The notes below the pieces were generated by a model, which was not told the DNA's origin, did no database searches, and worked only from the letters and a program-made list of their open reading frames with translations. This document shows positions 2,512 to 62,613 of a DNA stretch of 64,000 bases, one piece after another. The stretch is taken from NCBI GenBank assembly GCA_964345005.1, contig CAYFPQ010000002.1, forward strand, positions 48,219-112,218. The letters are read 5' to 3'. This DNA is from an uncultured Victivallales bacterium (lineage in GTDB: Bacteria; Verrucomicrobiota; Kiritimatiellia; UBA8416; JABMPJ01). The position numbers and the translations under genes are program-made. Within the stretch, counting starts at the first letter, position 1; every line of letters starts with the position of its first letter.

Positions 2512-3966
2512 TTAGACGACGTATGTTGAGGCGGAAGTTGTGCCGCCGCGGCCGGTCCAGTTCGTGTGGAAAAACTCACCGCGTGGCTTGTCCAGACGCT
2601 CGTAGGTGTGAGCGCCGAAGTAGTCGCGCTGAGCCTGCAGCAGATTCGCCGGCAGACGTTCGCAGCGATACGAGTCGTAGTAATTCAGCGCCGAGCTCAT
2701 TGCCGGAATCGGAATGCCGAGTTTGACAGCAGTCTGAATCACCTTGCGCCACGGGCGCTGTGCCTGGCGTACCACGCGCTTGAAGTAAGGCGCGAGCAAC
2801 AGGTTAGGCAGTTTGCGCCGGCGCCCAAAGGCCAGCTTGATTTCGTCAAGGAACTGGGCCCGGATGATGCAGCCACCACGCCACATCAGCGCGATCTCAC
2901 CGTAGTTGAGCTTCCAGCCGTGTTCCTCTGATGCCGCGCGCAGGAGTTGATATCCCTGGGCGTAGGAGCAGATCTTTGATGCGTAAACGGCATCATGGAG
3001 CTGCTGGAGGAACTTCTCGCGGTCGCCGCGGAACGAAACACGCGGTCCGCGCAACTTCGTAGAGGCCGCCACGCGCTCATCCTTGATGGCCGACAGGCAG
3101 CGCGCAAACACAGCCTCGGCGATCTGCGGGATGCCGACTCCAAGGTCCAGCCCGGCTTGCGACGTCCACTTGCCGGTGCCCTTCTGGCCAGCCGTGTCGA
3201 GAATGACGTCGACCATCGGGGTACCGTCGTCATCCTTCTTGGCCAGGATATCGCGGGTGATCTCGATCAGGTAGGAATCCAGCACGCCGTCGTTCCACTC
3301 GGCGAACACTTTCTGACATTCGTCGGCGCTCATACCGAGCCCCTGACTCATGATATGGTAGGCCTCACAGATGAGCTGCATGTCACCGTACTCGATGCCG
3401 TTGTGGACCATCTTCACAAAATGACCGGCACCGTCCTTGCCTACCCATTCGCAGCAGGGCGATCCGTCCGGGGCCTTGGCCGAGATAGCCTGGAAGATCT
3501 CCTTCACTTCAGGCCAGGCCTTGGGGCTGCCGCCGGGCATGATGGAGGGCCCAAGGAGCGCGCCCTCTTCACCACCGGAAACTCCGGTACCGATGTAGAG
3601 GATGCCCTTCTTCTTCAGTTCTTCGTAACGGCGGATGGTGTCCGGGTAGTGACTGTTACCGCCATCGATGATGATGTCGCCCTGTTCCACGTAGGGCAGA
3701 AGCTGCTCGATGAACGCATCCACAGGGGCACCGGCCTTGACCAGCAACATGATCTTGCGTGGGCGCTCGAGGCTGTTCACCAGCTCTTCCATACTGTGGC
3801 AGCCGATGAAGTTCTTGCCGGCGCCACGACCGTTAACGAAATCGTCCACCTTGCTCACCGTGCGATTGTAGCACGCCACTGTGAAGCCCTTGCTCTCCAT
3901 GTTCAGAATGAGGTTTTCCCCCATCACTGCCAGCCCAACCAATCCGATGTCTGCCTTGTCTTTCAT
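2512..3966 (-). CDS. gnd: 6-phosphogluconate dehydrogenase (decarboxylating)
   Basis: N-terminal Rossmann GLVGLAVMGENLILNMESKGF, conserved GxSGGEEGA and C-terminal 6PGD domain over the full 484 aa. Confidence 0.93.
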   Translation of the reverse strand: MKDKADIGLVGLAVMGENLILNMESKGFTVACYNRTVSKVDDFVNGRGAGKNFIGCHSMEELVNSLERPRKIMLLVKAGAPVDAFIEQLLPYVEQGDIIIDGGNSHYPDTIRRYEELKKKGILYIGTGVSGGEEGALLGPSIMPGGSPKAWPEVKEIFQAISAKAPDGSPCCEWVGKDGAGHFVKMVHNGIEYGDMQLICEAYHIMSQGLGMSADECQKVFAEWNDGVLDSYLIEITRDILAKKDDDGTPMVDVILDTAGQKGTGKWTSQAGLDLGVGIPQIAEAVFARCLSAIKDERVAASTKLRGPRVSFRGDREKFLQQLHDAVYASKICSYAQGYQLLRAASEEHGWKLNYGEIALMWRGGCIIRAQFLDEIKLAFGRRRKLPNLLLAPYFKRVVRQAQRPWRKVIQTAVKLGIPIPAMSSALNYYDSYRCERLPANLLQAQRDYFGAHTYERLDKPRGEFFHTNWTGRGGTTSASTYVV

Positions 3967-3998
3967 ATCTCTCCTCTTTCTTATACTGTATGTATGCT

Positions 3999-4856
3999 TT
4001 AAACGCCACTATATGCTGCAAATCCGCCATCAACCGGGATCACTGTTCCGGTCACGAATCCCGCTCCCTGATCCGAGACCAGCCACAGAAGGGTTCCCAC
4101 GAGTTCCTCGGGAGTGCCGTAGCGGCCGAGGGGAGTCTGCCCGATGATCTGGCCGCCCCGTGCCGTTGGCGATCCATCTTCGTTCGTCAAGAGGGCGCGG
4201 TTCTGATCGGTCAGGAAGAATCCCGGTGCGATCGCGTTGACGCGAATTCCAACTTTCGACATGTGCACGGCGAGCCACTGCGTGAAGTTGCTGACTGCCG
4301 CCTTCGCGCCGCTGTAGGCCGGGATCTTGGTCAGGGGCGTGAATGCGTTCATCGACGAGGTATTGATGATAACTCCCCCACCCCGCTCGGCCATGCCGCG
4401 TGCGAATACCTGCGACGGAAGGAGTGTCCCGAGAAAGTTCAGATTGAATACGAATTCGATGCCGCCCGCATCCAGATCAAAGAACGTGGTGGCGTCGGAA
4501 TCGGCCTGCGCGAGCACTTCCCTGGTCAGGAACTCCATTGACGTCGTTCCCTTGGGATGGTTGCCCCCTGCCCCGTTGATCAGAATGTCGACCGGTCCCA
4601 GTTCGGCTTCGATCTTTCCGCGGGCTGCCTCCAGGCTGGCCGACTCGAGTACATTGCAGTCGACCCCGATTGCCGTGCCGCCGGCTCCGTTGATTTCGGT
4701 TGCCACGGCCTCCGCTGCTTCGAGGCGAAGGTCCGCCACAGCCACCTTGGCACCGCATTCGGCCAATGCCTTGGCCATGGTGCTGCAGAGAACACCCCCA
4801 CCCCCGGTCACGACCGCAGTCTTACCTTCCAGGTCAATATTGAACGGTACAGTCAT
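3999..4856 (-). CDS. SDR-family oxidoreductase (sugar/sugar-acid dehydrogenase-like)
   Basis: TGGGGVLG cofactor motif after MTVPFNIDLEGKTAVV, NGAGG motif and YSGAK catalytic Tyr-Lys; start moved to Met 4856 (ORF 4907) to avoid overlap with the upstream gene. Confidence 0.8.
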   Translation of the reverse strand: MTVPFNIDLEGKTAVVTGGGGVLCSTMAKALAECGAKVAVADLRLEAAEAVATEINGAGGTAIGVDCNVLESASLEAARGKIEAELGPVDILINGAGGNHPKGTTSMEFLTREVLAQADSDATTFFDLDAGGIEFVFNLNFLGTLLPSQVFARGMAERGGGVIINTSSMNAFTPLTKIPAYSGAKAAVSNFTQWLAVHMSKVGIRVNAIAPGFFLTDQNRALLTNEDGSPTARGGQIIGQTPLGRYGTPEELVGTLLWLVSDQGAGFVTGTVIPVDGGFAAYSGV

Positions 4857-4873: not shown

Positions 4874-6181
4874 CTAAGCTTCCTCGAACCGGTTTCGCCA
4901 CGACCACAGGCCGATTGCGGGGTTCGAAATATAGAAAATCTCCTCGCCGTCATCCATGACATTGATACCGTCCTTCAGGTTCGCAGGATCGTAGCGTTCG
5001 AGCATGGCGTCGAGCGGTGCATAGTTGAAATTGACACTGCGGATCTCGTCTTCGCTTAGGTGACCGGGGCAGTACGTGATGGTGAAGCGCCCCTCTGAAG
5101 ACCCGTGAATGAGATGTGCGGCAGCGCTCAGGTTGTTACCCAGTTCAGGATGCTCCTTTAGAGCGGCCAGCACGGCTGGGGTTCCAATGTACCCATAGGC
5201 GCGAATCAGGCGGTCAATCTCCGCGTCCTCGCCAAACTCGCATACACCAGGCGCCAGCACAATCAACTCGCCATCGTCGGCAATGGCCATGCGCGTGCGA
5301 TAAACGCTCTTGTTGCCAAGCCAGGTGCTCTTGAATTCAGCGGGATCGAGATAGACCACCACTTTCTTGAGTGGCTCCTCTACCATTTCGAAATTCACCT
5401 TGAGCGAGAGCTCGGCGGCACGGTCGAAGCACTCGCGGCCGTCCCCGATGTAGAGCCCGCGGAGCTGGAGCTCCCCGGCATCGTCTCGCCCGATAACCGT
5501 CTGCACGTAAACAATGGGCAGGTCGGATGCAAAATGCTCACAGGCGTAGTCCAGTACCCGCCGCACGGGCGTATCGGCCCGCCCCATCATCCGTTCCATG
5601 CCGTAGGCCGCACCCAGGAAGTGGCTCTTGTTGATCCCTTCGGGTCCGCCCGTGCCGACGAAGACGTTCTTGCTGTGATTTGCCATGCCGATCACTTCAT
5701 GCGGCACCACTTGGCCGATGGAAATGATAAGGTCATGACCGCCATCGACCAGCAGATGGTCGACCTGTGCAGGCCAAGCATAGTCTACAGCGCCTTCCGA
5801 CACTTCGCGAAGAAACTCGGCCGGCACTTCACCCAGCGTGACAACACCACTGCGCCAGTCGTGCTCGCGGAACCGGTCGTGCGGAACGCCAGGAAACATC
5901 TCGTCAAGTTGCCCGGCCGTCATGGGCGTATGGGTTCCCAGGGCCGGGAGCACATCGACAAGGCGATCGCCGTAGTAATCGAAGGCAAACCGTGTGAACA
6001 TGCCGGCTTGAGAGTGAAAACGGGTGAAATCAGGCGGAATTGCCAAGACGCGATCACGACGTCCGAGCTGCTCGAGTACGCCCACGAGCGCCGCACGTGC
6101 TTCTTCCGGTGCGATTACATCTGCTTCTGATCCACGTTCGAAATAGAGCATAGCGCTTTTTCCTGTCGCGAAAGAACGCAA
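4874..6181 (-). CDS. LarA-like (lactate racemase family / DUF2088) alpha-hydroxyacid racemase/epimerase homolog
   Basis: 435 aa, size and layout of LarA; segment VVPHEVIGMANHSKNVFVGTGGPEGINKSHF resembles the LarA His/Lys pincer-cofactor region; call is from memory of the family. Confidence 0.45.
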   Translation of the reverse strand: MRSFATGKSAMLYFERGSEADVIAPEEARAALVGVLEQLGRRDRVLAIPPDFTRFHSQAGMFTRFAFDYYGDRLVDVLPALGTHTPMTAGQLDEMFPGVPHDRFREHDWRSGVVTLGEVPAEFLREVSEGAVDYAWPAQVDHLLVDGGHDLIISIGQVVPHEVIGMANHSKNVFVGTGGPEGINKSHFLGAAYGMERMMGRADTPVRRVLDYACEHFASDLPIVYVQTVIGRDDAGELQLRGLYIGDGRECFDRAAELSLKVNFEMVEEPLKKVVVYLDPAEFKSTWLGNKSVYRTRMAIADDGELIVLAPGVCEFGEDAEIDRLIRAYGYIGTPAVLAALKEHPELGNNLSAAAHLIHGSSEGRFTITYCPGHLSEDEIRSVNFNYAPLDAMLERYDPANLKDGINVMDDGEEIFYISNPAIGLWSWRNRFEEA

Positions 6182-6260: not shown

Positions 6261-6340
6261 GGCCCGCTCGGATAGCGGGCCCTTTACCATGGATCGCGCA
6301 ATACCGTGGGTTGGGTAGGGCCCGTTCTCCGAACGGGCCG
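6261..6340. repeat. REP-like palindromic element, two inverted units (copy A)
   Basis: unit1 ggcccgctcggatagcgggccctttacca (6261-6289) and inverted unit2 tgggtagggcccgttctccgaacgggccg (6312-6340); each unit is itself a hairpin; same family at 17521, 32415 and 62102. Confidence 0.65.
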
Positions 6341-6464
6341 CAGCACAGGCGCGCCCGCTGAGCGAACCTGCCAAAATGACACAGTGAATCGGCTTGCGGC
6401 GGCGCGTGGTCCGTGGTAGGGTTGTGTCATATTGTCGCATTAGAAAGGCAAAGGATTTAGAAAA

Positions 6465-7691
6465 ATGCCAATGAAATCTGGATTTGTTGAACGATTGATC
6501 GAGCGACTGGATCGTTTGGACCCGGAGAGTTTGCAGTCTCATTTTCTTCGCTTGGCGCAGGATCGAGGGCTCCTGGAAATGGTATTCCAATCAATCCAGG
6601 AGGGTGTCGTGGTGGTGGACAGCAGCGGGAACTTGGACTACGCGAATCGTGCGGCGGAACAGTTTCTGGGATTTGCGCTGGAATCTGAGCAGGGAAAACC
6701 GGTTTCGCGCTACTTGGGTGAGATCGACTGGGAGCGCATCTTGAGCTTGGACACGCAGGAGTGGTCAAGACTCGTCACGCGCGAGATCGAGATCACGTAT
6801 CCGGTGCAGCGTTTCTTAACATTCTACGTCGTGCCGATGCACCAGGATTCACTTGAGAGTACCGGTGCATTGGTGATTCTCCGGGACGTTACGCATGAGC
6901 GTGAGGAGGAAGCGACAACGCTGGAATCCGAGCGCATCAATGCCGTGAAGCTGCTGGCCGCTGGTGTCGCGCACGAGATTGGCAATCCGCTCAACGCACT
7001 GAACATCCACCTTCAACTGTTGGACCGCGAGATAGGGAAGATGCGGAAGGATGCGGATGGGGGAGCGTCGGCTGACTCCGAGGACTTGGGCTACCTGCAT
7101 GAGTTGACGGAGGTGGCACGTACGGAGGTGGGGCGGCTCGATCAGGTGATCACGCAATTCCTACAGGCCATCCGGCCAACCAGGCCGGATTTGGCTTCCG
7201 CACAGATCGAGATCCTGTTGGAGGATACGCTGACGTTGCTCAAGCAGGAGGTGCAGAACCGCAGCATCAGTATCGAGATTGATCGGCCCGACAAGTTGCC
7301 GCGGATCAGGGTCGATAGCGGCCAGATCAAACAGGTCTTCTTCAACGTCATCCGTAACGCGTTCCAAGCCATGCCGGATGGTGGGCAGCTCAAGATCGTA
7401 CTTTTCACAACGGACGAGTATCTCGGCATATCGTTCCGGGATTCGGGCGTGGGAATTCCGCCCGAGGAGTTCAGCCGCATCTTCGAACCCTATCACACGA
7501 CCAAGGCCAGCGGTTCGGGGCTGGGGCTGATGATTGTGCAGCGTATCGTGCAGGACCATGGCGGGCAGATCGAGGTGATGAGCAAGGCGGATGCCGGAAC
7601 CGGGTTCACCGTGTTGCTGCCGCTGGTTGAACGGAGCATCCGGTTGTTGGACGCGAAGGCGAGCAGGAAGAGAGGGAAGCGCAATGAGTGA
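6465..7691 (+). CDS. sensor histidine kinase (PAS + HisKA + HATPase_c), NtrB-like
   Basis: H-box AAGVAHEIGNPLNALNIHLQLL; N/G boxes (NVIRNAFQAM, DSGVGIP, GSGLGL); PAS-like N-terminus; 8-nt overlap with the downstream sigma-54 regulator. Confidence 0.88.
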   Translation: MPMKSGFVERLIERLDRLDPESLQSHFLRLAQDRGLLEMVFQSIQEGVVVVDSSGNLDYANRAAEQFLGFALESEQGKPVSRYLGEIDWERILSLDTQEWSRLVTREIEITYPVQRFLTFYVVPMHQDSLESTGALVILRDVTHEREEEATTLESERINAVKLLAAGVAHEIGNPLNALNIHLQLLDREIGKMRKDADGGASADSEDLGYLHELTEVARTEVGRLDQVITQFLQAIRPTRPDLASAQIEILLEDTLTLLKQEVQNRSISIEIDRPDKLPRIRVDSGQIKQVFFNVIRNAFQAMPDGGQLKIVLFTTDEYLGISFRDSGVGIPPEEFSRIFEPYHTTKASGSGLGLMIVQRIVQDHGGQIEVMSKADAGTGFTVLLPLVERSIRLLDAKASRKRGKRNE

Positions 7692-9339: not shown

Positions 9340-9966
9340 CTACGCGGCCAGCGACTTGGCCAGGTCGGCTGCCGAAGCGGCATCCGGCGCGTAGCCATCG
9401 GCACCGATCTCGTCGCAGAACGCCTGCGTTACCGGGGCGCCACCGATCATGACTTTGGTTTCTACGTCTGAGGCCTTCACCGCATCCACGACCGCTTTCA
9501 TGTTGGTCATGGTTGTCGTCAGCAGAGCGGATACACCGATCACGGACGCGTTGTTCTCCTGGGCGGCGTCGACGAACTTTTGCGGTTCGCAGTCGATACC
9601 CACGTCGACAACCTTGAACCCGGCGCCTTCGAGCATCATGCAGACAAGATTCTTGCCGATGTCGTGCAGGTCGCCCTTAACGGTGCCAACCACGGCCACA
9701 CCGACCGGCTCCACGCCGCTCTCTGCGAGCTTCGGCTGGAGGATCTCCATGCCGGACTTCATCGCACGGGCAGCGATCAGTACTTCGGGAACGTAGACCT
9801 CGTTCTTCTTGAAGCGCTCACCGATCACGCTCATGCCGGCCAGCAAACCGTCATTCAGCACTTCAGCCGGAGCGGTGCCGCCGTCCAGCGCCTGCACAAC
9901 CAACTCCTTCACATCGTTAGCCTTACCCTTCATCAGGTTTTCGGCAATGTCCTGCAATACACTCAT
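9340..9966 (-). CDS. cobalamin-binding corrinoid protein (B12-binding_2 helical cap + B12-binding Rossmann domain)
   Basis: DxHxxG motif (GDLHDIGKNLV), ...GVSAL...GG B12-binding signature; 208 aa, typical of methyltransferase-cognate corrinoid proteins. Confidence 0.8.
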   Translation of the reverse strand: MSVLQDIAENLMKGKANDVKELVVQALDGGTAPAEVLNDGLLAGMSVIGERFKKNEVYVPEVLIAARAMKSGMEILQPKLAESGVEPVGVAVVGTVKGDLHDIGKNLVCMMLEGAGFKVVDVGIDCEPQKFVDAAQENNASVIGVSALLTTTMTNMKAVVDAVKASDVETKVMIGGAPVTQAFCDEIGADGYAPDAASAADLAKSLAA

Positions 9967-17520: not shown

Positions 17521-17604
17521 GGCTCGCTCGGAGAGCTCGCCCTACCTCAGCTTGGGCAAGGTCCATCGTGGGTGAGGTAGGGCGAGCTGTCCCCAGCGAG
17601 CCGG
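17521..17604. repeat. REP-like palindromic element (copy B), probably also a terminator after mutY
   Basis: ggctcgctcggagagctcgccctacctca ... tgaggtagggcgagctgtccccagcgagccgg: 29-nt inverted arms around a 23-nt loop; units match the 6261/32415/62102 family. Confidence 0.65.
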
Positions 17605-20414: not shown

Positions 20415-21593
20415 TCACTCAAACCATGAGAGAGAGGGACGTTCAAAGAACTCATCCAGCGGGATACCCCCCGACCCGATGACCAGGCATTCCGCCGCAG
20501 GGTACTCGCGGCGGAACGCATCGAGGCCGGAGAGCTTTCCTGGCTGCCCTGACTTAACCTCCATGCCCCATGTTTTCGCGCCGTGCTGAACCACATAATC
20601 CACTTCGCTGCCCGCTTTCCGCCAGTAGGTTAGCTTGTAGGCGGGGCGCGGCAGTCCATTAAGAAGCATCACGCCGACCGCGTTCTCCACGAGACGCCCC
20701 CACCAGGAAGCGTCATCTCGGGCCTCATGGAATCGCTTAGCAGAAGGTGCGCAGATGAGTCCATTGTTCCAGAATACAAGCTTGGGACTACTTCCGCGCT
20801 TACGCTGATGTCCCATGGAGAAAAGCTCTAGCCCAGATAGCAGAAAAGCCTTCTCGAGCAGATGAACGTATCCGGCAAGCGTGGTTGTGTTTCCGGCGTC
20901 GTGCAACTGTCCCAACATTTTGTTGTAGGACAAGATCTGTGCGGGGAAACTGGTGGCGAGACCGAACAGATTGCGAAGCAGCGCAGGTTTGGCGATGGTC
21001 TCCATTTGCAATACATCTTTCGCAATAACAGTTTCGATCAGGGAATCCGAAACATAACGCGACCACTTGGATTCATCCTGCGCAAGAGGTGCGGCACCGG
21101 GGTATCCGCCGAAGTAGATCCATTGATCCAAGTCCCAGGCAAAAGCTTCCCGGCACTCTGGCCAAGACCAATGCGTACAGCGATGTAGAAAGAAACGCCC
21201 TGCCAAGCTTTCAGAGGCCCCACGCTGTAAGAGCAGTGCGGAAGAGCCCAGCAGGATGGGGCGAACGGAGCCGCCGGATCTACACTCCTCGTCCCACAAG
21301 CGTTTAACGGTCTCACTCCACCCATGCACTTTCTGAACTTCATCGAGAACAAGTAGCACCTTTGAGCCATCTAGTCCGCGTGCTCGGTTCCAGTGGGTTT
21401 CAATCCACTCAGGCCCAGGTGGCGGTGCAAGGTCTGCCGCCTCGAAGACACTCGGCCATCCCAGTTTCTCAACCACCTGTTCTGCTGCTGTGGTTTTGCC
21501 TACCTGCCTTGGTCCAGCTACGATCTGGATGAGCGCTCGTTCATTTTCCAGTAGATCGATCAGCTCCGAGACCAATTTCCGCTCAATTCTCAT
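20415..21593 (-). CDS. AAA+ ATPase, DUF4143-family (archaeal-ATPase-like)
   Basis: Walker A GPRQVGKTT near N-terminus, Walker B LVLDEVQ, C-terminal DUF4143-like region; first gene of the lower-GC segment. Confidence 0.75.
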   Translation of the reverse strand: MRIERKLVSELIDLLENERALIQIVAGPRQVGKTTAAEQVVEKLGWPSVFEAADLAPPPGPEWIETHWNRARGLDGSKVLLVLDEVQKVHGWSETVKRLWDEECRSGGSVRPILLGSSALLLQRGASESLAGRFFLHRCTHWSWPECREAFAWDLDQWIYFGGYPGAAPLAQDESKWSRYVSDSLIETVIAKDVLQMETIAKPALLRNLFGLATSFPAQILSYNKMLGQLHDAGNTTTLAGYVHLLEKAFLLSGLELFSMGHQRKRGSSPKLVFWNNGLICAPSAKRFHEARDDASWWGRLVENAVGVMLLNGLPRPAYKLTYWRKAGSEVDYVVQHGAKTWGMEVKSGQPGKLSGLDAFRREYPAAECLVIGSGGIPLDEFFERPSLSWFE

Positions 21594-21657
21594 GACCGGT
21601 GACTCTAACCTGAATACACTTCGATGTCAATATTGCTCAATGATTGAGAAATATTAC

Positions 21658-22311
21658 TCAATGACTAAGCAACAGCTTCCTTCCTGCACGTCGTCGGCCA
21701 TGTTCGTCAAAGTGCCGCGACAGGTGGAATTCCGTGATTCCGATGTTGGCAAACAGAGAGATCATAAGAACTCCGACCGATGAAGCCAGCGAGAGAGATG
21801 CTCTCATTGTGATGCAGCTTATGGCCTGATAGATGATCGTGATCAGGGCGGCAGCAATCATGGCATTTGCGCTGAACCGTTGGGCTTCGTCCCATACTTC
21901 CTGACTCTGCATGGAGATGTGCGTTCGGTGTCCGTATGACCCATTGATCTCGGCCGGTAGGTGCGTGCGCACATACAGACCGAACCCGAGCAAAAGCGGT
22001 CCCATGAACAAATGAAACAGTAGCAGTCCTTTGGGGTCTTTCTTCGGCGAGGTCGCGCTACGTTCCCCCCAACGCCATTTCGGCTTTTCCCCCTTCCACC
22101 AGCATATCGCAATGAGAGCCATCGAGAGAATGCCGGTGTAGATCAGGTACGCGGCCATCTGCTGGTCCGGTTTGAATACGAAGATGCCGCCTGTCACGAG
22201 AACCATGTAGCCGACAAATATCGCCCAGCCCTGCCAACAGACCGGGAGATCCCAGCCATACCCGAATCGTTTCGCTGGAAACCAATACTTGGAATCGCCC
22301 TTTCTACTCAT
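21658..22311 (-). CDS. integral membrane protein (SdpI/DUF1648-like C-terminal architecture)
   Basis: KYWFPAKRFGYGWDLPVCWQGW followed by several TM helices; start trimmed from ORF start 22368 to MSRKGD to limit overlap with the upstream gene. Confidence 0.5.
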   Translation of the reverse strand: MSRKGDSKYWFPAKRFGYGWDLPVCWQGWAIFVGYMVLVTGGIFVFKPDQQMAAYLIYTGILSMALIAICWWKGEKPKWRWGERSATSPKKDPKGLLLFHLFMGPLLLGFGLYVRTHLPAEINGSYGHRTHISMQSQEVWDEAQRFSANAMIAAALITIIYQAISCITMRASLSLASSVGVLMISLFANIGITEFHLSRHFDEHGRRRAGRKLLLSH

Positions 22312-22834
22312 GACCGCCTCCATGCTCCATGACCCCCAGCCCGACGAGGATCTGCCTTGCTTGTCCAACTTCGTTTTCGGGAACCATTACAGCCATACCC
22401 CCTGCACCCAAACTGACCCCACCGAACCGGGCAGAGCACGCCACCTCGTTGTTCACGTAGCAGTTGATATTGGCCTGCTCCAATGCATCTCGAATCATCC
22501 CGGCTTGTATAGGGCTGCCGGGCTGCCAGATTGAAACGAACGTGGACTTCACCTCCTTGTTGTCCACTTCTTCAGTTCCGACTGTAGCCGCATCAGAGTG
22601 CTTCCAAACCTTTGGTTTTCTCTCCAGAATCGTCATGAAGTCCGACATGGCCCAGAGAAGGTAAAGCAGACCGGCGGCCAGGAAGCATACGAGGCGGATC
22701 CGTGCGTCGTCGAGAATCGGAGAACCAGAATCGACCAGGAACTCACCGAGTATCCCGAGAACGACCAATGTTGCTGCTCCCGCCAACGCAAGTGCCCTGA
22801 CGAGTGGATGTCGCCGTTTCTTCCTATGTCTCAC
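22304..22834 (-). CDS. membrane protein with C-terminal DUF2007 (putative signal-transducing) domain
   Basis: three predicted TM helices, then SPIQAGMIRDALEQANINCYVNNE...GGMAVMVPENEVGQARQIL, paralogous to stand-alone DUF2007 at 24914..25180. Confidence 0.6.
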   Translation of the reverse strand: MRHRKKRRHPLVRALALAGAATLVVLGILGEFLVDSGSPILDDARIRLVCFLAAGLLYLLWAMSDFMTILERKPKVWKHSDAATVGTEEVDNKEVKSTFVSIWQPGSPIQAGMIRDALEQANINCYVNNEVACSARFGGVSLGAGGMAVMVPENEVGQARQILVGLGVMEHGGGHE

Positions 22835-23310
22835 TCGCCGTCCCTGCTCGGAGATGTTCTGCTGGTCTTGGGTTGCCTCGATATAGTGATGGTCCGATCA
22901 TCCGCGTGGTACACGAGACCGCCCAGTGCGACTGTCAGTCTCAGAACTCGCAGTACGGTCATGTCCTTACCCCTAAAGGTGATCACAGGCCAGGTCCTGG
23001 GGTTTCTCTCGACGTCGCAGGCGATCCGCGCCCGCGTGAAACCGGACGCATCGCCGCTGGCTTCGTACTGTGTGATCGCTTGGTCGAGAAACTCGGCTAC
23101 GTCGTGTATGTTGGCACCGCGGAAGTTAACCTCCGGAATGATGATTGCGTCGAGTTGCTTCTCAATGTCAGATAGTCGAGGAGAACCGAAGTTAACATTT
23201 CCCGTGACGGGATCCAGCCGCGGAATAACCGTGTGTCTGTCGGCCGTGCTACAGCTGGCAGCACAAAGGCACACAAACACGAAACTCATGACTGCCCGGA
23301 CACTGTCCAT
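22831..23310 (-). CDS. lipoprotein, hypothetical
   Basis: lipobox LCAASCS after signal peptide; 4-nt overlap with downstream gene. Confidence 0.55.
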   Translation of the reverse strand: MDSVRAVMSFVFVCLCAASCSTADRHTVIPRLDPVTGNVNFGSPRLSDIEKQLDAIIIPEVNFRGANIHDVAEFLDQAITQYEASGDASGFTRARIACDVERNPRTWPVITFRGKDMTVLRVLRLTVALGGLVYHADDRTITISRQPKTSRTSPSRDGE

Positions 23311-23411
23311 GGTTTACCTCCTCTTGTTCCGGCCCGCCAAAATGACGTAGAATCCTACTGTAGCCAGAGGTGCAGTGCACTTTGCAGTTAGCCGATGACG
23401 TGGATTGTGCA

Positions 23412-23624
23412 TCATTTCCCGACTCGATTGATATAAGCGATATAGGCAAACTCGATGCCGCCGAACAGTATCCATGCGAGTATACCTGTGAGGATACCCT
23501 CCTGAGGTCCGCGTGCAATGCCGACTGTAACGCCCGCCACAATGCCGAGGGTCACGATGCAGTAAGCCAGGAACTTGGTCATGAGTGTTTTCCTTCTGCT
23601 GTTCTCAAAGACAGAAGATTGCAA
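23412..23624 (-). CDS. small hydrophobic membrane protein, hypothetical
   Basis: 70-aa ORF with two predicted TM helices; no homology recognised; could start at MTKFLAY (23582). Confidence 0.35.
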   Translation of the reverse strand: MQSSVFENSRRKTLMTKFLAYCIVTLGIVAGVTVGIARGPQEGILTGILAWILFGGIEFAYIAYINRVGK

Positions 23625-23645
23625 ATGGGCAAGGATATGGCTCGG

Positions 23646-24173
23646 CTATTCGACCATATCTTTCATTTGCAGAGTGTCTGTCTTATGGCTGAACTTCTTG
23701 TAGACGATAACGCACCATGCGGTGGTGATGGCTAGATATGCTCCTATACTGATCCAGAAATGGTCCAGCTTGGCTGCATTGCCCAAGTGCACTTGGAATG
23801 ATTGGTGAAAGATGTCGAGTAAGAGAATCATCGTGAAAGAACCCATCCAAAGGAACAGAGGGAGCATATAATTTAGGGTTTTCTGACGCCGTTCCGGTGC
23901 CAGCCAGTAGTTCTTGTTCGGAAGGTTGATTGCCGAATCGGGGATCTTTGGCATGAGAAGGCCAAGTCCAAGGAAGGCCAGTGCCATAATACCTATGGTG
24001 GCAAGGTAGACTATTAAGAACTGGATCTTGTGCCCCCATGCATCAGGTTTCCCCGTGGTGTCAAAGTGGTGGGCAACCTGTTCTGGCAGGCGGGGGTAGT
24101 ACCACAGCGCGTGAGCGATGCAGATGACACAAAGCAGCACAAATACCATGATCACGGTCGTTCGCTTGTTCAT
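23646..24173 (-). CDS. DUF1648-domain membrane protein (SdpI-related)
   Basis: YPRLPEQVAHHFDTTGKPDAWGHK matches the DUF1648 N-terminal motif; four TM helices. Confidence 0.65.
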   Translation of the reverse strand: MNKRTTVIMVFVLLCVICIAHALWYYPRLPEQVAHHFDTTGKPDAWGHKIQFLIVYLATIGIMALAFLGLGLLMPKIPDSAINLPNKNYWLAPERRQKTLNYMLPLFLWMGSFTMILLLDIFHQSFQVHLGNAAKLDHFWISIGAYLAITTAWCVIVYKKFSHKTDTLQMKDMVE

Positions 24174-24395
24174 ATGTTGCTTTCCAATTTTGATATTACA
24201 GAATCACCGACGGTAAGAGCTGTGGCGAACAGGAAGAGTGTATGTATTGCTCTCATCTCATAACTCTCCGTCCTCCAGAGGCTTGGCGATCTGGGCCGGT
24301 GTGCGTACAGTGCGGCATAATCGCGGGGCAATGCTCGTGCAGGTTTACTCATGTTTCGGTTTCTTTTGATCTGTGGGCCACGGTCTTGCGGGCAT

Positions 24396-24917
24396 TCACT
24401 GCTTCAACGGACTGCTCAGCAGGCGAATGTCATCGATCCAGATCGTACCGGTTCCTTCGATGACGACGTTGAGCTTGATGTTGTCCGGGTTCTGGCCCTC
24501 TTGAAGAAAGAACGGCGTCTCTTCCGTCGTCCACTCCACATTACCTGTCACAGGTGTTTGCATGTCGCGTGAGAAGAACTCTCCCATCCCGTCGAGACAA
24601 CACCACATCTCCAGGTAAGCCTTGCCTTGGAATTCGCTGGTCCGAAGTTTCGCGCGGTACGTCAAACGCGCGTTCTCGACGTCGACATCGCCGGTTTCGT
24701 ATAGCCGGACGGTCATAGGTTTGTCGGCAACGATCTTGAGCGAACCATTTCCGTCACTGCTGACACTTGCATCCAGCACACCCGCATCCCGGGCAATGAT
24801 GCCATCCAGATTCACAACCGGATAGGCCTTTACCGTCGTTACCGGTCCGGGCATCCTCGAACACCCGTTCAGAATGGCCGCACCCGTTACAATCGCCAGA
24901 ATCGCAAACTTCTTCAC
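24396..24917 (-). CDS. lipoprotein, hypothetical (GTG start)
   Basis: signal peptide + lipobox ILNGCS; start codon is GTG in sequence (gtgaagaagttt), overlapping the upstream stop by 4 nt. Confidence 0.55.
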   Translation of the reverse strand: MKKFAILAIVTGAAILNGCSRMPGPVTTVKAYPVVNLDGIIARDAGVLDASVSSDGNGSLKIVADKPMTVRLYETGDVDVENARLTYRAKLRTSEFQGKAYLEMWCCLDGMGEFFSRDMQTPVTGNVEWTTEETPFFLQEGQNPDNIKLNVVIEGTGTIWIDDIRLLSSPLKQ

Positions 24918-25180
24918 AAGGCCTCCTCCATGGGTTCATTTCCCAAACTATCTATCCCCAGTCCCGCAACAATATCCCGCGCTGTATCCGCCTGCTCCTC
25001 CGGCACCATTACCTGCATGGTACCGACGCCCAACCCCATGCCACCACCAAGGCGAACGGTGGCGAAGTTCTCGTTGTTGATATAGCAGTGTATCTCCGCG
25101 TTTTCCAATGCCCCCCGAATCATCCCCGCCTGGATAGAATCGCGAGGCTCGCAGATGGAAACGAATTTGCGGTCACTCAT
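24914..25180 (-). CDS. DUF2007-domain protein (stand-alone)
   Basis: DSIQAGMIRGALENAEIHCYINNE...GTMQVMVPEEQADTARDIV, same domain as C-terminus of 22304..22834; start ATG overlaps upstream stop (TGATG). Confidence 0.65.
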   Translation of the reverse strand: MSDRKFVSICEPRDSIQAGMIRGALENAEIHCYINNENFATVRLGGGMGLGVGTMQVMVPEEQADTARDIVAGLGIDSLGNEPMEEAL

Positions 25181-26211
25181 CAGGTGTCCTCTCGTTCCAG
25201 CAGCTTGGCAATTTCCGTGGGTGTTGGCAATTGACCTTTGAGATCTTTGGGCAGGCGCTTGACGATGCGGTAGGTGGCAACACCGATAGGCTTGCTTGAT
25301 TCGTACAAGGCGTATTCGACAACGGTTCGCTTCTTCTCTTTGCAGAGGATGATCCCAATGGACCGGTTCTCCCCCTTCTCGCGAACCTGACGGTCAAGAG
25401 ATGTCAGATAGAACTGCATCTTGCCGACGAACTCCGGTTCGAATTCGCCGACCTTCAATTCGACTGCAACCAGACTGCGCAGTCGCCGGTGATACAGCAA
25501 CAGGTCGATGAAGTATTCTTTCCCCTCCACCTCCAAACGGAACTGGCTTCCCACGAACGCAAACAGACCGCCCATCTCGCGCAGGAAATGCTCGATGCGG
25601 CCAACCAGCGCGCGTTCGAGTTCCCGCTCGGCATGTTCTTCTCCCAGTTCCAGAAAATCGAACGTGTACTCGTCCTTGACGGCAAGCTTGGCTTGGGCAC
25701 GGAGTTTGGGCGTAAGCGCCTTATTGAAGTTGGTTTGGCCGAGAAGGGTCTTCTCGTAACTCTGGTTTTCGATCTGGTGCATGAGCACGTTCTTGGTCCA
25801 GCCGAATTTCCGGGTCATTCGGATGTAGAACTCGCGCTCCTGCGTGTCCTTGCAGCGCTGGAGGATGATCAGGTTATGCGTCCACCCGATTTGTGCAACC
25901 AATGGTTGCACTTTTGGCAGGCCGGCATAGGCGACGTAGAATTCGCGCATATAGAAGATATTGCGCCTCGAGAAACCTGAGACGCCAGGGAACTCTATCC
26001 GTAAGTCGGCGGCCAGTTGCTCGGCCACGGCTTGACCGTGCTTTGAATCCATTTTCCGTTCAACAATGATCCGTCCGATATCCCAATAGAGCGACACCAA
26101 CTCCTTGTTGACTGCCCGAAGCGCCTTGTACTGTGCGGATCGGACGCGTTCCTTCACTTCCGCTAACAGCACAGCGTACTCGCGGGGTAATTTCTGTGAT
26201 GGTTTGCTCAT
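25180..26211 (-). CDS. DUF1016 / YhcG-family PDDEXK nuclease
   Basis: YhcG-like N-terminal helical domain and C-terminal PD-(D/E)xK-like core (EYFIDLLLYHRRLRSLVAVELKVGEF); start at MSKPSQ gives ATGA overlap with upstream gene. Confidence 0.7.
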   Translation of the reverse strand: MSKPSQKLPREYAVLLAEVKERVRSAQYKALRAVNKELVSLYWDIGRIIVERKMDSKHGQAVAEQLAADLRIEFPGVSGFSRRNIFYMREFYVAYAGLPKVQPLVAQIGWTHNLIILQRCKDTQEREFYIRMTRKFGWTKNVLMHQIENQSYEKTLLGQTNFNKALTPKLRAQAKLAVKDEYTFDFLELGEEHAERELERALVGRIEHFLREMGGLFAFVGSQFRLEVEGKEYFIDLLLYHRRLRSLVAVELKVGEFEPEFVGKMQFYLTSLDRQVREKGENRSIGIILCKEKKRTVVEYALYESSKPIGVATYRIVKRLPKDLKGQLPTPTEIAKLLEREDT

Positions 26212-26909
26212 GTTTTCATCTCTCTGCTCCTCAGAAACTTTGCCCAGAATACCCCAAGCCATAAGAGCGTAAGAGCGGGTATGCCTATCACGATCACGTA
26301 CGTCAGAGTCTTTGGGGCTGGTTTATCCGGCGTCAGGCTATCCAGGCAAATGGTATGATGAACAAGCAGCAGGATGCCGACGACGCCCACACCCAACCAT
26401 CCCGTCCACCACTGTACGAAACGCATGGTCTCCGCATTACCTTCCAGTTGGAGAGATATATCCCACATGCCGGATACGGCTGCCTGATCAATGACTTGAA
26501 AGAGCACAGCAGAAGTAAGATTGGATGCGCAGACGATATGAGCCTTGCACGGCCCTATGGTCCGTTTGCGCTTCTCCGTCAGCTCATTATTCAACACGGA
26601 AATGCTACAGAGGGAACCATCCATGGTGCAGAGCTCATCTATGTCGATAGCAACCTGCACACATTTTGATCCATGCCTATCAGGATCAGGTTCGGGGGTG
26701 CAAAGCGTGACGATGTTTCCTGTGGTCGTGTACTGAAGCTTCCCGAGCTTTGCCGTCAGCTTCACGGCGTATAGCAGAGGCATCTTGTGGCAAGCAAACG
26801 TGATGAGCGGGGCATTCGGGCTGAGGTGTGCCCTGTCGACTCTGATACGGACCCGACTCTCGTCATGCTTCTCCGGACCGGTGCCATACTTCGGTACGCC
26901 CCAATACAC
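26208..26909 (-). CDS. hypothetical protein, about 150-aa soluble N-terminal domain + 2 C-terminal TM helices
   Basis: no recognisable domain; Cys-rich N-terminal part; translationally coupled (ATGA) to the nuclease gene. Confidence 0.5.
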   Translation of the reverse strand: MYWGVPKYGTGPEKHDESRVRIRVDRAHLSPNAPLITFACHKMPLLYAVKLTAKLGKLQYTTTGNIVTLCTPEPDPDRHGSKCVQVAIDIDELCTMDGSLCSISVLNNELTEKRKRTIGPCKAHIVCASNLTSAVLFQVIDQAAVSGMWDISLQLEGNAETMRFVQWWTGWLGVGVVGILLLVHHTICLDSLTPDKPAPKTLTYVIVIGIPALTLLWLGVFWAKFLRSREMKT

Positions 26910-26918
26910 AGAGCAATA

Positions 26919-27536
26919 CTAAGCAGCATCTTGTTCACTTCTGTCTCCTGATCTTACGAAAGCTCTGTCGATTACGACTGTCCCCGCGATGAAATCGTGG
27001 ATTGCGCGCTTTCGCGCATTGAATAGAAGCACGACTACTTCGCTCCAGATCCAAACTTGGTGAAAGATGCCGACAGATCCGAACCACGCAGGGGCATGTT
27101 CGTTCACAAGTTGAGCGCGCTCAACCCATCCCAAGGTCACGTAGCGGTCCGGATCAACTTGAGTCAGCCCCCATACCTCGACAAGTAGCATGATGAAGGC
27201 AAAGACGAGATCAACAGCGGACCGTTTCCATGCTTCGGCCCAGCCAATTCGCGATCCGTCGGGTCTTGTTATGCGTATACCGACTGCGAGTTTGCCCAGC
27301 GTCCCGCCGAAACGGGCGTTGAAAAAGACGTTATACATTGCGAACAACACATAGGAGGGGATTGTCACAATGATCGCGAGTGCTCTGTCCAACCCCTCAA
27401 GCCAGATGAAGAAAGAGGTGAAAGGGAGCAGAATCAACGTATCGGCAAGACCTGCAACGAGTCGCGGCCAGAATCCGGCATACACCTTGTGACCACTCGA
27501 TTTCGCTCTGACCGGCAGAAACTCCTTGTCTCGCAT
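26919..27536 (-). CDS. RDD-family membrane protein
   Basis: TM helices and C-terminal RAIHDFIAGTVVI (RDD signature). Confidence 0.7.
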   Translation of the reverse strand: MRDKEFLPVRAKSSGHKVYAGFWPRLVAGLADTLILLPFTSFFIWLEGLDRALAIIVTIPSYVLFAMYNVFFNARFGGTLGKLAVGIRITRPDGSRIGWAEAWKRSAVDLVFAFIMLLVEVWGLTQVDPDRYVTLGWVERAQLVNEHAPAWFGSVGIFHQVWIWSEVVVLLFNARKRAIHDFIAGTVVIDRAFVRSGDRSEQDAA

Positions 27537-27545
27537 ACCTGCTTT

Positions 27546-28319
27546 CTACTTGATGTAGTAGCCCGACACGCGCCACGTGCCGTCTTTGTCCAGCATGAAG
27601 GTGACGGTTTCGGTGGCGGTCTTCTTGTTCTCGAACGAGGTGTCGAATTGGATGACGACGTAGTCGCCGTCTGGAGCGCCGGGAATCGAGGTCTTGTGTT
27701 CGCTGCTCTTGACTTTGCGGGAGACGACGCTTCCCAATGGCTTGCGTACGCCATCCAGTGCTTGCGACCACTGCGTGGCCGGAAGGGCGCTCTTGAATAG
27801 GGTGGCGGCGTTACTCCAGCTCTTGGCATATTGTCCGGAGTCGATGGTTGCCAGCCACTGTTTGGCGGCGCTGATGGCGGCATCATTTTCTTCGCCGCCG
27901 GCCTTGGCTGTCTCGAAGGCGAGCAGGTAGGGAACGGCCGAGGCGTGGTTGGTGTCTTTGAAGTTGGTGTTCTTCTGTGTATTGATCCAGAGCGCGTAGG
28001 TCTTGCCGGGTTGGAGCTTCACAGGGAGGATACAGGTTCGCTTGTCGTCCAGATAGCGGATGCCATTCTTGTCCGTGACTTCCGGGAAGGTGTCGCGTGA
28101 TTGGAAGCACCACGACCACATCCGGTCCGTCATCATGTCCTTGCTAAACGTTACGCGGATCTCGCTCAGCGACGGGTCCACGCTTGTATCACCCGCCGTT
28201 GGCACGGTCTTCACCACAACAGGCGGAAGCGTCGCTACGCTCGTTCCCCCCGCGTTCGCCGACACAATGCCCAGGAGCATCGTGACACCCATGACTGCAA
28301 CCAGAATTCTGCTCCTCAT
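27546..28319 (-). CDS. secreted protein, Ig-like N-terminal domain + DUF4019-like C-terminal domain
   Basis: signal peptide; PPVVVKTVPTAGDTSVDPSLSEIRVTFSKDM resembles SbsA-type Ig-like domain; C-terminus AAKQWLATIDSGQYAKSWSNAATLFKSALPATQWSQAL resembles DUF4019. Confidence 0.55.
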   Translation of the reverse strand: MRSRILVAVMGVTMLLGIVSANAGGTSVATLPPVVVKTVPTAGDTSVDPSLSEIRVTFSKDMMTDRMWSWCFQSRDTFPEVTDKNGIRYLDDKRTCILPVKLQPGKTYALWINTQKNTNFKDTNHASAVPYLLAFETAKAGGEENDAAISAAKQWLATIDSGQYAKSWSNAATLFKSALPATQWSQALDGVRKPLGSVVSRKVKSSEHKTSIPGAPDGDYVVIQFDTSFENKKTATETVTFMLDKDGTWRVSGYYIK

Positions 28320-28393
28320 CGCTTCCTCCCATTCAACGGCTCAAACGGCACTGGGCGGAAGAGATAGGCGATCCGGCTCTACAGGCGGTAACC

Positions 28394-29458
28394 GTGCTCT
28401 GCCGGAGAATGTGTGTCAGCCGGCCGGTCCGGCTGTTGAAATCTACGCTTGTTCAGGTTCCTTCTGTTATCGGCGTTCTGCGCCCGGTCATTTTGTTGCC
28501 TGTCGGTGCGTTCACGGGATTGTCTCCCGATCAGATCGAAGCGATCCTGGCGCATGAACTGGCGCATATCAAGCGGTACGACTATCTGGTCAATATCGTC
28601 CAATCCGTCATCGAGATTCTCTTCTTCTACCATCCGGCCGTGTGGTGGGTGTCGCACAGGATTCGCGTCGAACGCGAGAACTGCTGTGACGACATTGCGG
28701 CATCTGTTTGCGGAGACCCGGAGACCTACGTCCGGACGTTGGTCGTCCTGGAGGAGGCCCGTTGCCCTGCGCCCGTTCTGTCTGTTGCTGCGAATGGCGG
28801 AAGTCTCGTCTTGCGCGTCCAGAGATTGGTCTCAGAGGAACGCAAGGGACATGGAGGAAGCGGCTGGGAGTCGGTCGTCACCATCCTTGTTGTTATGCTT
28901 GGCGCGGTATTGTTGTCGACGTATACACGGGCAACACCCGCAGATACGCTCGGGCAGGCGTCGCGGTTTATTTATGAGGATCCATCTCAACTCGCAATCG
29001 ACAATCGTGCCTATTTCGATTTTGCAGACCGGGTCTTCTGCGATGTGCGCCTGGGAGATCGAATCGAAGACGTAATCGAAACATATGGAAAGAGCGCATT
29101 CCCGACCTATGCGAACGAGGTGGTTGCAGAACGGCCCTACACGGGTTCATATCGGGACAGGTACGATTATCGGTATCGAACGGGTGACACCGTAATCCAT
29201 ACCATTGACGGGAAAGTGGTCAACCTGTTCTCAAAGTCGACGCATATCCAAACAGATAAAGGTTTGAAGCGGGGAGATACCCGAGAACGATTAGTTGAGC
29301 TATATGGCCCTCCTGAGTCCACGTTCAATGGTGGCAGGGCTCTCAACTACTTCTTCGATGATATTCGTGCAGTCGTGTTTTTAACGTCGGCAGATACCGT
29401 GAGTCATCTAGAAGTCCTGAACGCCATAGAACCTCCAAGGACGCGTGTGGTTCCCTGA
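28394..29458 (+). CDS. BlaR1-type M56 metallopeptidase domain protein, N-terminally truncated, C-terminal domain of unknown type
   Basis: HELAHIKRYDYLVN...FFYHPAVWW is the M56 HExxH region; the usual N-terminal multi-TM region is absent because only 75 nt separate it from the upstream gene; no BlaI/MecI-type repressor nearby. Confidence 0.6.
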   Translation: MLCRRMCVSRPVRLLKSTLVQVPSVIGVLRPVILLPVGAFTGLSPDQIEAILAHELAHIKRYDYLVNIVQSVIEILFFYHPAVWWVSHRIRVERENCCDDIAASVCGDPETYVRTLVVLEEARCPAPVLSVAANGGSLVLRVQRLVSEERKGHGGSGWESVVTILVVMLGAVLLSTYTRATPADTLGQASRFIYEDPSQLAIDNRAYFDFADRVFCDVRLGDRIEDVIETYGKSAFPTYANEVVAERPYTGSYRDRYDYRYRTGDTVIHTIDGKVVNLFSKSTHIQTDKGLKRGDTRERLVELYGPPESTFNGGRALNYFFDDIRAVVFLTSADTVSHLEVLNAIEPPRTRVVP

Positions 29459-29617
29459 TCCAGTGCTCATATCCGTGTCATCTGGCCAGACGTGCAGGCG
29501 TATCGGTCTCTACTGCTCGGCCACGCACGATGCCGAGTTCGACAATCTGCGGGTCTATCGGGAGCCGTGATGGATGTGTGATGTACGAGTTCTCCCGGGG
29601 CGGGAGAGGGCGCGGGA

Positions 29618-30013
29618 TTACCAGATTGTGTTGACGTATGGATAGGCGCGGATGAGCCTGTCGGAGGTTACGAGGGCGGCGCCGTAGCGGCGGCACATGG
29701 CAACGATCATTCTGTCGGCAGGGTCTCTGTGGAAATCCCCAGGCAGCCGGGTACAGGCGATAGCGTCTTGCGCTGACAGCGCCTCCACCATTAGGTTTGG
29801 ATACGAGCTGGCCTGGCGAAACCACTCGTCAATATCCATGCACAGTTCAAGCTTGCCTATCTCGCTCTTGAGCGCTACCTCCCATACGGAGATGACCGAC
29901 ACCCGGATGCCATCCGTGTCTTGAGCCTTCTGAATGGCGCGTGCCGCAGGTTGCGAGAGCCTGTCCGGATCATGAGCCCACCAGAGCCAAGCTTGCGTAT
30001 CGAGAACCACCAT
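29618..30013 (-). CDS. PIN-domain toxin (VapC-like)
   Basis: MVVLDTQAWLWW..., PIN acidic residues (DT, E, D...SD); 131 aa; directly downstream of a Phd/YefM antitoxin gene. Confidence 0.8.
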   Translation of the reverse strand: MVVLDTQAWLWWAHDPDRLSQPAARAIQKAQDTDGIRVSVISVWEVALKSEIGKLELCMDIDEWFRQASSYPNLMVEALSAQDAIACTRLPGDFHRDPADRMIVAMCRRYGAALVTSDRLIRAYPYVNTIW

Positions 30014-30017
30014 CGTC

Positions 30018-30320: not shown

Positions 30321-30488
30321 TGTGGGTTGCCTCCAGGTTGTACAACAAATGTTGCACAACTACGCGAGGAGGTCAAGAATGCCGTTTCCCACTATTCCTT
30401 ATGTCCACTGCTGTCTGCCTACAGGTGCAGAACATCGTGAGCGGTTGGCGTTTGCAGCCACACGTGGCATGTGCTACAGGTTGCTCAA

Positions 30489-31292: not shown

Positions 31293-31328
31293 AGGGAGAA
31301 TCAACATCAACAAGGAACATCCAACTGA

Positions 31329-32414: not shown

Positions 32415-32503
32415 CCGGTCCGCTCGGAGATCGGACCCTACCTCGCACACGACATTGCTCCGCCCAAAAAAGGTCAGGTAGGGCCCGCTCTCCGAGCGGG
32501 CCG
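32415..32503. repeat. REP-like palindromic element (copy C), two inverted units
   Basis: ccggtccgctcggagatcggaccctacctc (32415-32444) and inverted caggtagggcccgctctccgagcgggccg (32475-32503). Confidence 0.65.
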
Positions 32504-32553
32504 CTGACCGTGCGGTTGCAGGGAATGGGATCACGGCGTATAGTGCCGGGACT

Positions 32554-62101: not shown

Positions 62102-62131
62102 CCCGGCCCGCCCGGAGGTCGGGCCCTACCC
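62102..62131. repeat. REP-like unit (copy D, single unit)
   Basis: cccggcccgcccggaggtcgggccctaccc matches the GGCCCGCTCGGAGAnCGGGCCCTACC unit. Confidence 0.55.
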
Positions 62132-62599: not shown

Positions 62600-62613
62600 C
62601 ATGGCCGCTCTTC

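Follow-up and report, generated by a model that had tools for sequence, protein, structure and literature searches.

GTAG-tagged palindromes in intergenic DNA of an uncultured Kiritimatiellia-like bacterium: a probable REP family of the PVC group

Why does a short G+C-rich palindrome recur between functionally unrelated genes of an uncultured Kiritimatiellia-like bacterium, and is it the kind of element that a transposase handles? REPs are palindromes preceded by GTAG, which often occur as a pair of REP and inverted REP, together with a single-copy domesticated HUH transposase (PMC8266576; PMC3479197). A sequence-only reading of 64 kb of this bacterium's DNA (the window, by which we mean the whole stretch that was analysed) had proposed REP/BIME-like elements that might be RAYT substrates, and this reading is supported by the palindrome, the GTAG tag, the extragenic position, the inverted dimers, the compensatory changes in the stems, and by RAYT genes bracketed by such REPs in related PVC genomes. 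The units very likely form a GTAG-tagged REP family of PVC-group bacteria, present in the window as three tail-to-tail BIME-like dimers and a singleton, and would be non-autonomous elements handled by a RAYT.

Palindromic units at four intergenic loci

The 26-nt consensus GGCCCGCTCGGAGAGCGGGCCCTACC gave five matches in the window with up to three mismatches, versus 0.00 expected from 100 dinucleotide shuffles of the window, while a fuzzy search allowing indels added units 1a and 2b and nothing further in the 64 kb. The resulting seven units lie at four intergenic loci (Table 1), and independent repeat finding grouped the same sites (families D3, D14, I2, I9, I10, I13 and I18). Each unit measures 26-28 nt and consists of a G+C-rich 9-bp stem with a 3-nt loop (GGCCCGCTC, GGA, GAGCGGGCC) followed by CTACC, and thus reads on the opposite strand as GGTAG followed by the hairpin. 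The hairpin is still intact in six of the seven units, and six of the seven carry the GGTAG tag, with the remaining tag being degenerate. Seven units in this layout, as inverted pairs at three loci and a single unit at 62102, each a small hairpin followed by CTACC, had been described from the sequence beforehand, and all of this can indeed be read there, with 0 expected by chance and the tail of unit 1a as the one departure.

Table 1. Position, strand and context of the REP units, dimers and spacer extensions in the window
Feature	Position	Strand	Sequence, structure or context
Locus 1	6261-6339		LarA-like gene (4874-6181, -) / PAS histidine kinase gene (6465-7691, +); divergent
REP unit 1a	6261..6288	-	GGCCCGCTCGGATAGCGGGCC-CTTTACC on + strand; tag on minus strand, degenerate (GGTAAAG)
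REP unit 1b	6314..6339	+	GGTAGGGCCCGTTCTCCGAACGGGCC; perfect 9-bp stem including compensatory T-A pair
Dimer 1 (units 1a + 1b)	6261-6339		Tail-to-tail, spacer 25 nt
Spacer extension, dimer 1	6303..6320	+	
Locus 2	17521-17602		After mutY (stop 17505), before Gfo/Idh/MocA oxidoreductase gene (ATG 17687); same direction
REP unit 2a	17521..17546	-	GGCTCGCTCGGAGAGCTCGCCCTACC on + strand; 'GCGAGC' variant, stem with tandem G.A/A.G on tag strand
REP unit 2b	17576..17602	+	GGTAGGGCGAGCTGTCCCCAGCGAGCC; loop variant
Dimer 2 (units 2a + 2b)	17521-17602		Tail-to-tail, spacer 29 nt
Spacer extension, dimer 2	17565..17582	+	ATCGTGGGTGAGGTAGGG
Locus 3	32417-32502		GT2 glycosyltransferase gene (31415-32323, -) / small lipoprotein gene (32554, +); divergent
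REP unit 3a	32417..32442	-	GGTCCGCTCGGAGATCGGACCCTACC on + strand; compensatory T-A at stem position 3; C.T at stem position 7 (A.G on tag strand)
REP unit 3b	32477..32502	+	GGTAGGGCCCGCTCTCCGAGCGGGCC; matches consensus exactly
Dimer 3 (units 3a + 3b)	32417-32502		Tail-to-tail, spacer 34 nt
Spacer extension, dimer 3	32436..32453	-	
Locus 4	62105-62130		After LPG_synthase_TM gene (stop 62096), facing nucleoside deoxyribosyltransferase-like gene (62180-62635, -); convergent
REP unit 4 (single)	62105..62130	-	GGCCCGCCCGGAGGTCGGGCCCTACC on + strand

All four loci are located between Pfam-supported genes, and thus share the extragenic position of REPs. The placement of the units in the divergent region before the histidine kinase gene, after mutY and downstream of the LPG-synthase-like gene had been read correctly from the sequence, whereas for locus 3, described as a convergent or upstream gap before the lipoprotein gene, only the upstream part holds, as the GT2 and lipoprotein genes point away from each other. 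A search of the whole window with Rfam 15 at the gathering threshold gave no match, and a known RNA family was therefore rejected as the identity of the units; ARAGORN found no tRNA in the window.

The tags point inwards in all three window dimers, and these thus have the make-up of a BIME, i.e. a REP and an inverted REP separated by a short linker. The same tail-tail orientation was seen in 10 dimers from Kiritimatiellia and Victivallales MAGs among the matches listed, versus 45 head-head dimers with spacers of 20-24 nt, mainly from Opitutaceae, also among the matches listed. With their tags inside and variable spacers, the window dimers were not assigned to the REPIN class; the window elements fit the BIME or tail-tail dimer type, and not the REPIN definition. 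The two units of a dimer are usually of the same variant, which suggests that the dimer is inherited as a unit. In addition, one unit per dimer is extended on the spacer side by (A/G)YCGTGKGYKR, immediately ahead of its GGTAG tag (three matches, 0.06 expected), and this shared one-sided extension indicates that the dimers are oriented composite elements, with dimer 3 inverted relative to dimers 1 and 2, as its extension is on the minus strand.

Stem conservation and the folding strand

The stem of the REP unit is under selection and is kept by compensatory substitutions. In 164 units among the matches listed, the GGTAG tag is at least 97% conserved (T, A and G each kept in 160-163 units) and the TCC/GGA loop is nearly invariant. 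Covariation was counted in 136 strict-pattern units among the matches listed, with a pattern that leaves complementarity free at several positions: stem pair 3/19 is C-G in 110 units, T-A in 24 and mismatched in two, while stem pair 8/14 is C-G in 66, T-A in 69 and mismatched in one. Across 47 distinct sequences, pairing holds in 87% of cells, and seven of the nine pairs have double-sided changes, a result reached by none of 500 shuffles, and pairing collapses when the register is slid.

When folded as single-stranded DNA, each dimer is predicted to form one long hairpin (-28 to -39 kcal/mol, z -3.9 to -8.3), in line with the larger structure that had been expected from the paired units, while the folding of the single unit 4 is unremarkable compared with shuffles of its G+C-rich context. 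The differences between the two units of dimers 1 and 3 are compensated within each unit and leave mismatches in the long hairpin, which argues for selection at least on the hairpin of the unit.

The departures from Watson-Crick pairing are themselves restricted. Stem positions 4-5 are either CC/GG or a recurrent 'GCGAGC' allele, and at stem position 7 the CTACC strand very often has C.T or T.C, with a purine at position 7 of that strand in two of the 164 units among the matches listed. Almost all non-Watson-Crick cells are of the C.T/T.C type when read on the CTACC strand, equal to G.A/A.G on the GGTAG strand. In DNA, G.A mismatches rank among the most stable and C.T mismatches among the least. 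As the mismatches are of the stable type on the GGTAG strand and of the unstable type on the opposite strand, the GGTAG strand is probably the one that folds. This agrees with the strand specificity of the E. coli TnpA-REP, which acts on the single-stranded REP and not on the inverted REP, and which needs both GTAG and the conserved stem mismatches (PMC8266576). The strand-specific G.A mismatches offer a concrete hypothesis for how a RAYT could tell a REP from an inverted REP.

Distribution in PVC genomes and the link to RAYT transposases

The pattern GGYYCGYYCGGAGRNCKSRCCCTACC was scanned over 185,579 species-representative genomes, with chance matches estimated at well under one, and the same 26-mer family was found in at least 112 stretches, which come from at least 53 species-level assemblies. 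Together with other intergenic sites in the closest relatives, this disposes of the possibility, raised beforehand, that the motif exists nowhere but at the four loci of the window. Among the matches listed, the assemblies are nearly all from PVC bacteria, with at least 28 of Opitutales type, at least eight each from Kiritimatiellia and unspecified Verrucomicrobia, at least four from Chthoniobacterales, at least two from Lentisphaerae/Victivallales, at least one from Akkermansia and at least two with other labels. Identical 26-mers occur in distant genomes, and unit 4 of the window belongs to the family's most frequent sequence type in other genomes. Dimer 2 is 85% identical, spacer included, to a stretch of a Kiritimatiellae MAG (L065, 4560-4645), and the oxidoreductase encoded next to it in the window has 78-89% identity to proteins of MAGs labelled Kiritimatiellia, Verrucomicrobia or Lentisphaerae. 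Whether such a distribution is called cross-phylum depends on the taxonomy, as Kiritimatiellota is a phylum of the PVC group at NCBI, while GTDB treats the Verrucomicrobiota, Kiritimatiellota and Lentisphaerota lineages as classes of one phylum.

Two further arrangements were noted in this survey. The same REP unit directly follows the same conserved coding sequence (..DCIKDKSGRHLHK..) in two Verrucomicrobia MAGs (L011, 5472-5497; L026, 6366-6391), where it might represent either an orthologous REP placed at the end of the gene or one that is read in frame, and L094 contains at 2100-2620 a 191-nt tandem repeat with one REP unit per copy.

Y1 HUH proteins were found in four of the loci examined by motif search, tblastn and family models. 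In Opitutaceae MAGs, the proteins at L068 (11-493, minus strand, in a Didemnitutus MAG) and L070 (3178-3564, plus strand, in an Oleiharenicola MAG, with a frameshift) reached 93.9 and 81.7 bits, respectively, on the NCBIfam model NF047646 'REP-associated tyrosine transposase' (cutoff 80), and both genes are directly bracketed by the REP family of the window, with GGTAG-hairpin upstream and hairpin-CTACC downstream. They also have the same upstream gene, indicating that the RAYT is syntenic in the two genomes and vertically inherited. The L068 protein matched the structure of the E. coli TnpA-REP (4ER8) with an E-value of 1.2e-10, and its HUH and Y..NP motifs line up with those of that structure. 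All seven metagenomic homologues (L113-L119, 48-51% identity) are likewise bracketed by REPs with GGTAGGG and a 9-bp stem, with the stems varying by genome and some of the REPs in BIME-like alternating arrays. At E <= 1e-15, the RAYT protein family comprises at least 1057 homologues; many are named RayT by JGI, and some are labelled Opitutus, Opitutae or Nibricoccus. The RAYT at L047 has a different GTAG REP, GTAG-CTCAAGCT-TCC-AGCTTGAG, in a tandem array of 74-nt repeats (5000-5475) directly 3' of the gene, which fits one RAYT per REP family. The REPs that bracket the RAYT genes are head-head, with tags outward, and this contrast with the tail-tail dimers of the window counts against the RAYT link.

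At L113 and L117 the alternating REP arrays are present on both sides of the RAYT gene. A further Y1 protein, at L001, was excluded as the cognate RAYT, since it scored below the RAYT cutoff and is bracketed by long terminal inverted repeats rather than by REPs; this 319-aa Y1_Tnp, in the region 3500-4800, has terminal inverted repeats (TTAATTAACAATTTACGGCCTGACCCCGTTC) of the 'TIRYT' type and is located approximately 700 nt from a REP dimer.

The absence of a RAYT gene from the window, as stated in the sequence-only reading, was confirmed by regular expressions, by tblastn with 124 RAYT queries and by a profile HMM on the six-frame translation. Neither did tblastn with the 124 queries or the profile HMM find a RAYT in approximately 80 kb of syntenic DNA of four relatives, and no Kiritimatiellia-labelled RAYT was recognised among the 120 homologues listed. 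We infer that the units are non-autonomous elements, whose GGTAG strand would fold when it is single-stranded, for instance on the lagging-strand template. The tag and hairpin would then be recognised by a RAYT with its gene at another place in the genome, possibly with the G.A mismatches as a specificity feature, and this enzyme would cleave and rejoin the DNA such that copies spread, are maintained or are deleted in intergenic DNA, with the surviving insertions avoiding core promoters and coding sequence. More speculatively, transcribed hairpins may secondarily buffer mRNA 3' ends, for instance after the stops of the LPG-synthase-like gene and mutY.

It is tempting, although so far a tentative and rather doubtful proposition, to see here one REP type (GGTAGGG, 9-bp stem, TCC loop) and one RAYT lineage shared across Verrucomicrobiota, Kiritimatiellota and Lentisphaerota, with strand-specific G.A mismatches and a lineage-dependent switch between head-head and tail-tail dimers. 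Should this reflect ancient vertical co-inheritance and not transfer, it would be an unusually deep and wide single REP-RAYT system, with the G.A positions as a testable recognition code.

Turnover, other explanations and known systems

Turnover was assessed at the syntenic loci of four relatives (L121, L123, L124 and L126, oxidoreductase identity 82-89%). Dimer 3 is absent from the orthologous gap in all four, although the surrounding gap is conserved, as is the lipoprotein promoter (TTGCnn-17-TATAGT), with the dimer ending 13 nt upstream of its -35. In the closest relative, the dimer 3 site is taken by a different palindromic insertion. Dimer 2 is also absent from all four, with mutY overlapping the next gene in one and an unrelated palindrome of approximately 40 nt in the other three. 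Conversely, L121 and L126 have a REP unit between the histidine kinase and PocR/AraC genes, where the gap in the window is 41 nt, and L126 has additional units where the window has none. L126 has a counterpart of dimer 1 in the equivalent place before the PAS kinase gene, as a different variant with a 13-nt spacer, which speaks for long persistence rather than activity and counts against mobility; the pairwise identity of 72-89% among the window copies likewise indicates that they are not recent. The overall pattern fits elements that would be gained and lost in intergenic DNA and would sometimes persist, with mobility judged from presence and absence only.

The comparison of these gaps gave several observations of its own. 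The TTGCnn-17 nt-TATAGT promoter (32515-32556 in the window) lies just 9 nt before the lipoprotein ATG in five of five genomes (window, L121, L123, L124 and L126), which suggests that the lipoprotein mRNA is leaderless or near-leaderless. The palindrome in the mutY-oxidoreductase gap of L121 (~9640-9850), L123 (~9785-9830) and L124 (~9835-9880) is perfect over approximately 40 nt, with the core CCACGATCGTGG and AT-rich arms. Its half-site has ATCGTGGGT in common with the REP-dimer spacers; a link between these spacers and the CCACGATCGTGG palindrome was rejected, as the palindrome is absent from the window at chance level and the similarity covers only 9-10 nt. The contig of L124 (1-21044; ENA NODE_626_length_95660) is self-mirrored around the palindrome at ~9860, with genes repeated in reverse order on the two sides, most likely because the assembly erroneously folded back at a perfect palindrome.

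Elsewhere in the window, an AT-rich inverted repeat at 36836-36906 (34-nt arms, 74% complementary, 3-nt gap), rich in TGTCA/TGACA, is located in the divergent gap between purL (32875-36762, minus strand) and a gene starting at 36950 (plus strand), and a similar ATGACACA...TGTGTCAT pair at ~6376-6432, upstream of the PAS histidine kinase gene, is conserved in L126; this inverted repeat may be an operator. Hexamer-periodic repeats (GGTTCC/GGCTCG) at 43234-43418 within an 865-aa ORF (42297-44894, minus strand) would encode a Pro/Glu-rich low-complexity linker. Finally, a block of lower GC (~20600-31300, approximately 11 kb, 0.545 vs ~0.59-0.61) between the thymidine-phosphorylase-like and GT2 genes contains paralogous segments (22445-22540 and 25070-25165; 24307-24356 and 26166-26215), and looks like a variable glycosyltransferase island, as L121 and L126 have only a single 267-aa GT2 gene at its site.

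Returning to the REP units, three other explanations were weighed against that of elements handled by a RAYT. They might be relics, i.e. REPs in decay since the lineage lost its RAYT and now neutral or only structurally tolerated, as the failure to find a RAYT in the window or its syntenic relatives, the divergence of the copies, the one degenerate tag (CTTTACC) and the low density in relatives (0-4 units per 20 kb, with seven units at four loci in the 64 kb of the window) would lead one to expect. We consider this possible but unlikely, since the hairpins are intact in all but one unit and compensatory pairs are found inside individual units, while the lack of a RAYT concerns only the small part of the genome that was examined. 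REP families are also said, by Bertels and colleagues, to be usually lost quickly without a RAYT, which counts against relics.

An explanation in which the hairpins are primarily RNA elements, acting as factor-independent terminators or stabilisers of mRNA 3' ends with an incidental link to the transposase, draws on the start of unit 4, which lies in a convergent gap 8 nt past a stop codon, and on that of dimer 2, 15 nt past the stop of mutY. It also draws on a gene-arrangement survey of the elements in other genomes, with 35 in tandem, 34 in convergent and four in divergent gaps according to crude and unreliable ORF calls, and on the same tandem/convergent bias reported for REPs in general (Di Nocera 2013, PMC3733652). 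The 37 'intragenic' elements of the survey are untrustworthy, because the crude ORF classification misassigned the window's own loci, and on inspection the flanks in other genomes are mostly non-coding and heterogeneous. Against an RNA role, two of the four window loci (1 and 3) are in divergent promoter gaps, upstream of both genes, Rfam gave no match, and the conserved GGTAG tag and strand-specific G.A mismatches are not explained by a simple RNA clamp. The terminator role that had been suggested for the units likewise found no footing, at least for intrinsic (Rho-independent) terminators, which are rejected because no unit is followed by a T tract (the tails consist of CTACC and flanks) and the terminator scan gave 0 sites at all four loci. 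A primary RNA role is therefore improbable, and would in any case not exclude a REP/RAYT origin. Least of all do we expect the units to be palindromic operators for a double-stranded-DNA-binding regulator conserved in PVC bacteria, which two loci in divergent promoter regions and the conservation across many genomes might suggest, but which is highly improbable as the changes preserve pairing rather than sequence, the adjoining genes are functionally unrelated, the sites are missing from orthologous promoters of close relatives with a conserved core promoter, and units also occur in tandem arrays and around transposase genes.

A GTAG-tagged REP family thus stands as the preferred explanation. 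GTAG-tagged REPs are already known in Verrucomicrobia, namely in Opitutus terrae (PMC3733652), and it is the host, a little-studied uncultured bacterium, rather than the class that is unfamiliar. The novelty is modest and lies in how widely one sequence type is spread over PVC lineages and in the strand-specific G.A mismatches, while the general picture of REP biology is unchanged. What is added is a well-defined REP family, together with its cognate RAYT clade, for Kiritimatiellia and further PVC bacteria, nearly all of whose genomes are MAGs and whose repeats are poorly annotated. The hairpins mark intergenic insertion hotspots and could serve as lineage markers. Palindromes of this kind can also make an assembly fold back artefactually, as happened in the contig of one relative.

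Among known systems, the REPINs of Pseudomonas fluorescens, attributed to Bertels and Rainey in 2011, are reportedly head-to-head, with tags outside and a fixed spacing. The PVC elements resemble these in that two inverted REPs form one long hairpin and in the single-copy RAYT, which has REPs on both sides and keeps its synteny from one genus to another (L068 and L070), and differ in the tail-to-tail arrangement and variable spacers of the window dimers, with the head-to-head form with 20-24 nt spacers being found in Opitutaceae. With the E. coli REP/BIME and TnpA-REP (RAYT group 2) they have in common the GTAG 5' of an imperfect palindrome and conserved non-Watson-Crick stem positions (Messing 2012, PMC3479197; Corneloup 2021, PMC8266576), as well as the REP and inverted REP with a linker and a related RAYT, the HUH and catalytic Tyr motifs of which align with 4ER8. 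Unlike in E. coli, the PVC REP stem is shorter (9 bp with a 3-nt loop) and often perfect, nearer to the 'group 3' short-REP type, with an unrelated sequence and known from sequence alone.

A further known system is the GTAG superfamily of Di Nocera 2013 (PMC3733652), in which 24 GTAG families are distinguished and GTAG REPs are reported in the PVC superphylum. There, Opitutus terrae is called 'highly enriched' in GTAG REPs, with families GTAG-17 to GTAG-20 forming head-head and tail-tail dimers (tags outside and inside, respectively, in the terms of that article) and heterodimers, and with many REPs being intragenic. No string matching the unit sequence was found in its supplements. Compared by description only, the window elements differ from GTAG-17 to GTAG-20 in their host, an uncultured Kiritimatiellia-like MAG, and in their tail-to-tail dimers with 25-34 nt spacers. 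With the GTAG superfamily as a whole (PMC3733652), they share a stem-loop (with stems of 6-9 bp being typical), an unpaired GTAG at one end, a mostly intergenic location, inverted dimers with 20-100 bp spacers, heterodimers of stem and loop variants, and the association with RAYTs.
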